From an uncultured Eubacteriales bacterium (GTDB lineage Bacteria > Bacillota > Clostridia > Oscillospirales > Acutalibacteraceae), in NCBI GenBank assembly GCA_934702115.1, contig CAKUYF010000001.1, forward strand, positions 1 through 37,678: a stretch of DNA of 37,678 nt, read 5' to 3'. Position numbers and translations under genes: made by a program. The notes below the pieces were generated by a model, which saw only the letters and a list, made by a program, of their open reading frames with translations, was not told the DNA's origin and did not search any database. The stretch's first letter is position 1. Each line of letters begins with the position of its first letter. Positions 33,780 through 33,920 of this stretch are shown piece by piece.

Positions 33780-33920
33780 TTATTTACATTCGCATTTTTG
33801 GTTGCTTACTGTATTATCAACTTTAGAAGCGGTTTGGCAAGATGCTTGGCATTCTCCGCATCCACCTGTAGAAAGAGTTTTCTTCAAATCTGTGGTATTT
33901 ACAGTTTTAATGTGTTTCAT
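33780..33920 (-). CDS. scfA: SCIFF-family ranthipeptide precursor (46 aa), five-Cys variant
   Basis: Not in the track because it is under 60 aa. Manual translation gives MKHIKTVNTTDLKKTLSTGGCGECQASCQTASKVDNTVSNQKCECK. The MKHIKT...GGCGECQ.SCQ signature is diagnostic of SCIFF. The Shine-Dalgarno AGGGGA lies 6 nt upstream. Confidence 0.88.
   Translation of the reverse strand: MKHIKTVNTTDLKKTLSTGGCGECQASCQTASKVDNTVSNQKCECK

Follow-up and report, generated by a model that had tools for sequence, protein, structure and literature searches.

Among the peptide-maturase pairs of Clostridia, SCIFF precursors and their maturases are some of the most conserved and widespread, and a 2026 pangenome study singled out SCIFF clusters as conserved yet uncharacterised (PMC13673991). 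Cys32 is the only thioether donor that has been demonstrated for SCIFF peptides (PMC8326336, PMC8172795). A sequence-only reading of the DNA analysed here, a 37,678-nucleotide stretch that we call the window, had pointed to a SCIFF precursor in which this cysteine is missing while the adjacent maturase looks intact. Does such a pair make a cross-link of another topology, or is the peptide a decaying substrate?

A SCIFF locus without the demonstrated donor cysteine

The precursor is encoded on the minus strand at 33780-33920 by a 46-aa ORF, MKHIKTVNTTDLKKTLSTGGCGECQASCQTASKVDNTVSNQKCECK, which the sequence-only reading had located and transcribed exactly. Its identity as a SCIFF holds on both curated precursor models (TIGR03973, 65.3 bits against a cut-off of 50; PF13165, 61.5 bits against a cut-off of 27), with a score on the SCIFF precursor model about 15-20 bits lower than those of canonical relatives. 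The leader MKHIKT...(G)G and the core ends CGECQ and NQxCE are present in the alignment and in a per-codon table. scfA lies directly upstream of an intact scfB, the two-gene layout expected for a SCIFF in Clostridia, and the assembly that contains the window (1.12 Mb, 204 contigs, 88% complete) has one SCIFF and one ScfB only. The locus comprises the following features.

33960..33987, minus strand: promoter-like TTGAAA-16-(TG)TAAAAT from a consensus scan, 10/12 matches (a consensus match only)
33927..33932, minus strand: Shine-Dalgarno sequence AGGGGA, 6 nt before the scfA ATG, read from the sequence
33780..33920, minus strand: scfA, 46-aa SCIFF precursor, core C21-x2-C24-x3-C28-QTASKVDNTVSNQK-C43-E-C45
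33724..33753, minus strand: stem-loop CGGCUUU...AAAGCCG, then AUAUUUUU, between scfA and scfB
32357..33715, minus strand: scfB, 452-aa radical SAM/SPASM thioether maturase with an N-terminal RRE; I146, D208, I324, N328, C122

The promoter-like site stands about 40 bases upstream of the scfA ribosome-binding site. Between the two genes, the intergenic region (33716-33779, minus strand) folds as RNA with -20.1 kcal/mol (z = -3.3 versus shuffles), and a weaker outer stem of the hairpin extends to the scfB AUG; this hairpin could set a high precursor-to-enzyme ratio. A polysaccharide deacetylase gene is found near scfB in the window (36868-37626, plus strand), with a P-type ATPase gene in between; in an Anaerovoracaceae locus (L158/L159, 4169-5150) such a gene directly follows scfB, perhaps by coincidence.

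Numbered as a canonical SCIFF, the core is C21 G E C24 Q A S C28 Q T30 A S32 K V34 D35 N36 T37 V S N40 Q K C43 E C45 K. Alignment to canonical SCIFFs agrees with the changes first proposed: Cys32 has become Ser, Cys36 has become Asn, Thr37 is kept and an extra Cys45 is present. The six-cysteine spacing of the family, C-x2-C-x3-C-x3-C-x3-C-x6-C, is absent from this five-cysteine peptide.

The sequence-only reading had taken Cys32 to be the demonstrated donor, and two reviews bear this out (PMC8326336, PMC8172795). They report a Cys32-Thr37 link for Tte1186a and CteA in vitro and, for CteA co-expressed with CteB in E. coli, a link from Cys32 to the C-gamma of Thr34; these two assignments disagree (PMC8326336, PMC8172795). 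In the predicted window peptide Cys32 is absent, from which it follows logically that the published Cys32-Thr thioether cannot form; any link based on Cys32 is therefore impossible, and a thioether in this peptide would need a different topology.

The variant core is fixed in one genus

The window belongs to a genus of small-genome (about 1 Mb) uncultured gut MAGs; within a set of 60 relatives, a SCIFF match was present in 33 of the 35 genus genomes. The two without a match are G028, whose scfB lies at a contig end, and G030, which is 74% complete; we attribute the missing SCIFFs to the contig end and the incomplete assembly, respectively. Scores on the SCIFF model run from 51 to 65 bits in the genus; those of the order's other genera lie at 73-85 bits. 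Reading the peptides, we found Cys32 and Cys36 absent from all 33. Apart from the outlier G004, with core GGCGECKSSCQSATKTEPDTANQKCEK, all (32/33) share C-G-E-C-Q-(A/V)-S-C-Q-T-A-S-K-V-D-N-T-V-x-N-Q-x-C-E; the only three deviations lie at positions 34-35. The fifth cysteine of the window peptide, in the motif CEC, occurs in seven of the nine members of the ScfB subclade to which the window belongs. It is confined to that subclade, and the conserved cysteine count of the genus is therefore four (21, 24, 28 and 43), so that the earlier description of a five-cysteine SCIFF is right for the window peptide and not for the genus.

When one genome from each of 185,579 species was searched with a degenerate DNA pattern encoding CQTASKxxNTV, 37 places were hit, of which five were chance matches in Bacteroidota and 32 were this genus. 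All 32 loci come from MAGs of uncultured gut bacteria (human UMGS and Hadza, goat and others), labelled Ruminococcaceae, Acutalibacteraceae, Eubacteriales or Clostridia bacterium, and all are identical to the genus loci. In a public protein collection the variant forms about 26 clusters at 90% identity, none of whose peptides has a name or accession there. In one variant-type peptide, P0002, the core is present twice, the two copies being connected by the CEC motif (..NQECECQASCQTAPKVDNTVSDQECECCK). In several lineages a single ORF encodes SCIFFs in tandem (P0002; P0032; L068/L072 at G161:C6:114090-114335; L071/L073 at G112:C17:25053-25301), some of them as two complete leader-core units back to back.

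Precursor and maturase are under purifying selection

If the peptide were a substrate in decay, with an enzyme that is kept for some other purpose, the missing donor cysteine would fit, and one divergent member of the genus, G004, does have an scfB split by a frameshift. The selection data contradict this reading. Across 33 distinct scfA sequences of the genus, core codons 21-44 have pS 0.74 and pN 0.023, giving a pN/pS of 0.031 at synonymous sites that are near saturation; the leader has a pN/pS of 0.33. Ser32 is written with all four TCN codons, Thr30 and Thr37 with four codons each, and Asn36 and Asp35 each with both of theirs. The replacement residues of the variant core are held by selection. 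Nowhere in the genus did we find a stop or frameshift in scfA, whose start codon, ribosome-binding site and leader are all intact, and genomes that have shrunk to about 1 Mb still have the pair. scfB is full length and free of stops in about 30 genus genomes, the short copies lying at contig ends, with a pN/pS of 0.25 overall and 0.05 in eight close pairs. The scfA-scfB pair is shown by these values to be under strong purifying selection. Decay, one of the two outcomes that the sequence-only reading had offered, is thereby refuted for a core kept throughout the genus, and as an explanation of the locus it is very improbable.

The G004 copy of scfB (L140, G004:C90, 452-1826) consists of a 95-aa and a 366-aa ORF separated by one frameshift, a split that reflects genuine decay or else faulty assembly of the contig, which is only 3.3 kb long.

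The maturase changed at four conserved positions

Window ScfB scores 644.9 bits on TIGR03974 (cut-off 425) and 561.4 on the 'not_ScfB' exception model NF040492, under its cut-off of 855; it aligns end to end with the CteB structure 5WGG (542 bits). In CteB the cluster ligands are C104/108/111, C344/362/413 and C400/403/409/432 (PMC10177961). Window ScfB numbering equals CteB numbering plus 2, and the CX3CX2C cysteines C106/C110/C113, the auxiliary cluster 1 cysteines C346/C364/C415 and the auxiliary cluster 2 cysteines C402/C405/C411/C434 are all kept. When 30 genus ScfBs were aligned with 25 outgroup ScfBs serving canonical peptides, all radical-SAM/SPASM cluster cysteines proved conserved in 30/30 and 25/25, respectively.

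The genus enzyme nevertheless differs at four positions conserved in ScfB, as R146I, N208D, F324I and H328N. The outgroup has R146 in 24/25 sequences, N208 in 25/25, F324 in 21/25 and H328 in 25/25, and CteB has all four. A further position, 122, is an invariant Cys in the genus and Gly, Thr or Ser in 22 of the 25 outgroup ScfBs. I146, D208, I324, N328 and Cys122 are each fixed in 28-30 of the 30 genus ScfBs. The maturase had been described as intact; that stands on the TIGR03974 score and the CteB match, but it is not merely intact, having changed together with the peptide at four conserved positions. R146, N208, F324 and H328 are not conserved in anSME or ChlB and are therefore specific to ScfB rather than general radical-SAM or catalytic residues. 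A maximum-likelihood ScfB tree unites the genus sequences in a single clade (100/100), whose stem is long, at 0.62 substitutions per site.

Two early branches suggest the order in which these changes arose. In a quick ScfB tree with two additional sequences, the ScfB beside the peptide P0111 branches first and carries F324I only; its peptide has Q32, N36 and T34. G004 branches next, its ScfB having I324, I208, S328, R146 and Cys120 and its peptide T32, P36 and T34, and the main genus clade branches after both. The two peptides have neither Cys32 nor Cys36, keep Thr34 and differ in their central segments (TKTEPDTA in G004, QKTSNGLPH in P0111). The early branches already lack the central cysteine pair, so the loss of the pair would predate the main clade; after a period of variation, the central segment would have become fixed along with all of the enzyme changes. 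P0111 itself (CQSYQKTSNGLPHQKC, with Gln32, Asn36 and His40) lies on a metagenome contig of 3495 bp (L175, 1270-2842) beside an intact 452-aa ScfB. We considered whether the P0111 type (Q32, N36) is a populated lineage and set the idea aside, as it is seen on a single contig only.

Loss of Cys32 alone is common, loss of the pair rare

How unusual the window core is among SCIFFs was gauged in an even sample of the class, 401 genomes from 217 genera, of which 399 could be scored. A SCIFF over the cut-off is present in 312 of the 399, and a generic core DNA pattern (its WSN codon covers Cys TGY as well as Ser) in 314 of the 401. Non-Cys residues at position 32, sought with NHN and AGY codon patterns, turned up only in the window (NHN) and in two genomes with an AGC serine, about 1% of the SCIFF-bearing species sampled. 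The 17 lowest-scoring SCIFFs of the class sample were examined as further candidates for cysteine loss and rejected: their six-cysteine spacing is kept and it is the leaders that diverge.

The two AGC-Ser genomes represent a second type, ...CQSASKTSCSVANQQCEQCK, and a search seeded with it returned 97 clusters of this Cys32Ser type among the best 120. They come from Anaerovorax odorimutans, Alterileibacterium massiliense, Mogibacterium, Anaerovoracaceae MAGs and others, and NCBI names the peptides 'six-cysteine ranthipeptide SCIFF'. Thr34 and Cys36 are kept in 97/97 of these clusters. An extra Cys46 (CEQC) in 40/97 brings the count back to six, parallel to the CEC of the window. The type was seen among proteins P0182-P0297 and at loci L157, L158, L159, L173 and L174; within the class sample it extends to genomes from two further families. 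In the maximum-likelihood ScfB tree its maturases form a separate clade (99/94), and the five Cys32Ser-type ScfBs in our alignment have the canonical residues at all five positions that distinguish the genus enzyme.

Loss of Cys32 alone is, judged from these searches, common and already annotated. The sequence-only reading had named as grounds against itself that such variants might be common and characterised; the first holds elsewhere for Cys32 alone, but for characterisation of the Cys32Ser group we found no record. Outside the genus, both Cys32 and Cys36 were seen to be lost only in P0032 (a tandem double SCIFF), P0201 and the single-contig P0111, and the double loss is, on present sampling, rare. 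Read from the precursors, Cys32 has been removed at least two times, once in the Cys32Ser group and once, together with Cys36 and Thr34, in this lineage, with peptide and maturase still under strong selection. As far as sequences can tell, this shows that the published Cys32 cross-link is not universal and cannot be what all SCIFFs depend on.

What the variant maturase may make

We counted residues in 166 canonical SCIFFs, 97 of the Cys32Ser type and 28 variant sequences. Position 30 is Ser in 165/166 canonical peptides and Thr in 28/28 variant ones; position 34 is Thr in 166/166 canonical peptides and Val in 27/28 variant ones; and position 37 is Gly in 33/166 canonical SCIFFs. The variability of Thr37 and the invariance of Thr34 would favour the in vivo Cys32-Thr34 assignment over the in vitro one. 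Thr at position 30 despite a retained Cys32 is found in at least three SCIFFs (P0030, P0031 and one of the 166), and Thr30 by itself is, on these counts, not diagnostic.

Taken together, the data argue that the window quite probably holds a functional scfA-scfB ranthipeptide pair whose precursor core was remodelled and then frozen. On this model the genus core would have exchanged Cys32, Cys36 and Thr34 for S32, N36 and V34, with Ser30 becoming an invariant Thr and Ser35 an Asp, and ScfB would have changed along with it at its four conserved positions and gained a cysteine. The enzyme would still bind the unchanged leader through its RRE, offer a core cysteine to the open iron of auxiliary cluster 1 as before and go on making a thioether, from one of C21, C24, C28, C43 or C45, between different residues. 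In Tte1186 an iron of this cluster binds the donor (seleno)cysteine of Tte1186a (PMC10177961).

Which residues these might be is suggested by the spacing. In canonical peptides Thr34 stands two residues from both Cys32 and Cys36, and Cys36-Thr34 may take the place of Cys32-Thr34 in the Cys32Ser type. In the variant a two-residue distance between Cys and Thr occurs only once, from Cys28 to Thr30. The Cys-x-Thr ring that thermocellin has in vivo could then have moved one Cys-x3 repeat toward the N-terminus. We put forward Cys28-Thr30 as a tentative candidate for the ring, a hypothesis from covariation that we prefer because it is the only Cys-x-Thr left and has the same spacing as Cys32-Thr34. 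The varied central segments of the early branches weaken the argument for any specific central ring being essential.

Alternatively, ScfB might now use Asp35, Asn36 or the universal Asn40 as acceptor and make a C-beta thioether of the PapB or NxxcB kind rather than one to a Thr C-gamma. Asp35 and Asn36 are new in the variant and invariant or nearly so, related ranthipeptide systems use Asp and Asn as proven acceptors (PMC8326336), N40-Q-K-C43 is spaced as NxxC, and window ScfB reaches 275 bits on the PapB model, under the cut-off of 340 but enough to mark the enzymes as related. However, a strict Cys-x3-Asp rule is reported for PapB (PMC8172795) and no Cys lies four residues before Asp35, while N40-x-x-C43 is also present in canonical SCIFFs, for which no such link has been reported. 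A switch of acceptor class is, on balance, decidedly improbable.

A further reading moves the function away from the central segment altogether. SCIFF function would then rest, perhaps everywhere, on the four kept cysteines (21, 24, 28 and 43) and the NQxCE tail; the four-cysteine frame could be a metal or iron-sulfur site, or could supply donors for cross-links that heterologous work has not captured. The Cys32/Cys36/Thr34 block would be dispensable, and its replacement in the genus secondary, with no relocation of a ring. Several observations fit: C21, E23, C24, Q25, S27, C28, Q29, A31, K33, Q41, C43 and E44 are invariant in the canonical, Cys32Ser and variant types alike; G004 and P0111 keep the four cysteines despite unrelated central segments; the CteB crystal structure has Cys21, not Cys32, bound to auxiliary cluster 1 (PMC8326336, PMC10177961); and reviewers treat the active form of SCIFF and the participation of its other cysteines as open (PMC8326336). 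Yet the main clade conserves its central segment no less strictly than the cysteines, which means that the segment is not neutral there; the changes of ScfB at otherwise conserved positions came together with those of the segment; and metal binding is not evidenced for any SCIFF. We regard this account as unlikely.

A broader suggestion, which we offer with considerable doubt, concerns the Cys32-Thr thioether by which published work characterises SCIFF chemistry: it may not be the functionally essential feature of SCIFF, and what is indispensable may be the frame C21-x2-C24-x3-C28...C43 with the NQxCE tail. Natural variants without the donor cysteine give a ranked list of universal SCIFF residues and five candidate specificity positions in ScfB, and if the four-cysteine frame is indeed what matters, the genus carries a minimal natural SCIFF in which to find the essential element. 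The analysis is comparative, and its value lies in a sharper experiment, not in a new kind of system; the genus offers a minimal, co-evolved pair from which to learn what SCIFF maturases do.

Comparison with known systems

The closest characterised relatives are CteA/CteB, which make thermocellin in Clostridium thermocellum, and Tte1186a/Tte1186 of Caldanaerobacter subterraneus, which share with the window pair the leader MKHIKT...GG, the motifs CGECQxSCQ and NQxCE and the two-gene layout. Compared with CteA and Tte1186a, the window peptide is without Cys32, Cys36 and Thr34 and has T30, D35 and N36 instead; compared with CteB, its ScfB has all cluster cysteines in place, four conserved positions changed and Cys122 added.

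The Cys32Ser group (...CQSASKTSCSVANQQCEQ[C]K) resembles the window variant in having no donor Cys32, often an extra cysteine just past C43-E, and an adjacent ScfB. Unlike the variant it keeps Cys36, Thr34 and Ser30, and its ScfB has the canonical R146, N208, F324 and H328 and falls in a clade of its own apart from the genus ScfB. Its Ser32 is encoded by AGY, whereas that of the window genus is encoded by TCN, so Ser32 arose separately in the two groups.

More distantly, PapA/PapB (freyrasin) and NxxcA/NxxcB share with the window pair the use of radical SAM/SPASM enzymes with an RRE, and theirs make non-alpha thioethers. Their acceptors are Asp and Asn, the residues that are new in the window core, but their precursor motifs are unlike that of the window, PapA having six Cys-x3-Asp repeats and NxxcA one Asn-x-x-Cys. 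By model scores the window pair belongs to the SCIFF/ScfB family and is not a new class, though it is a member without the six cysteines that give the family its name and without four of the residues otherwise invariant in ScfB.
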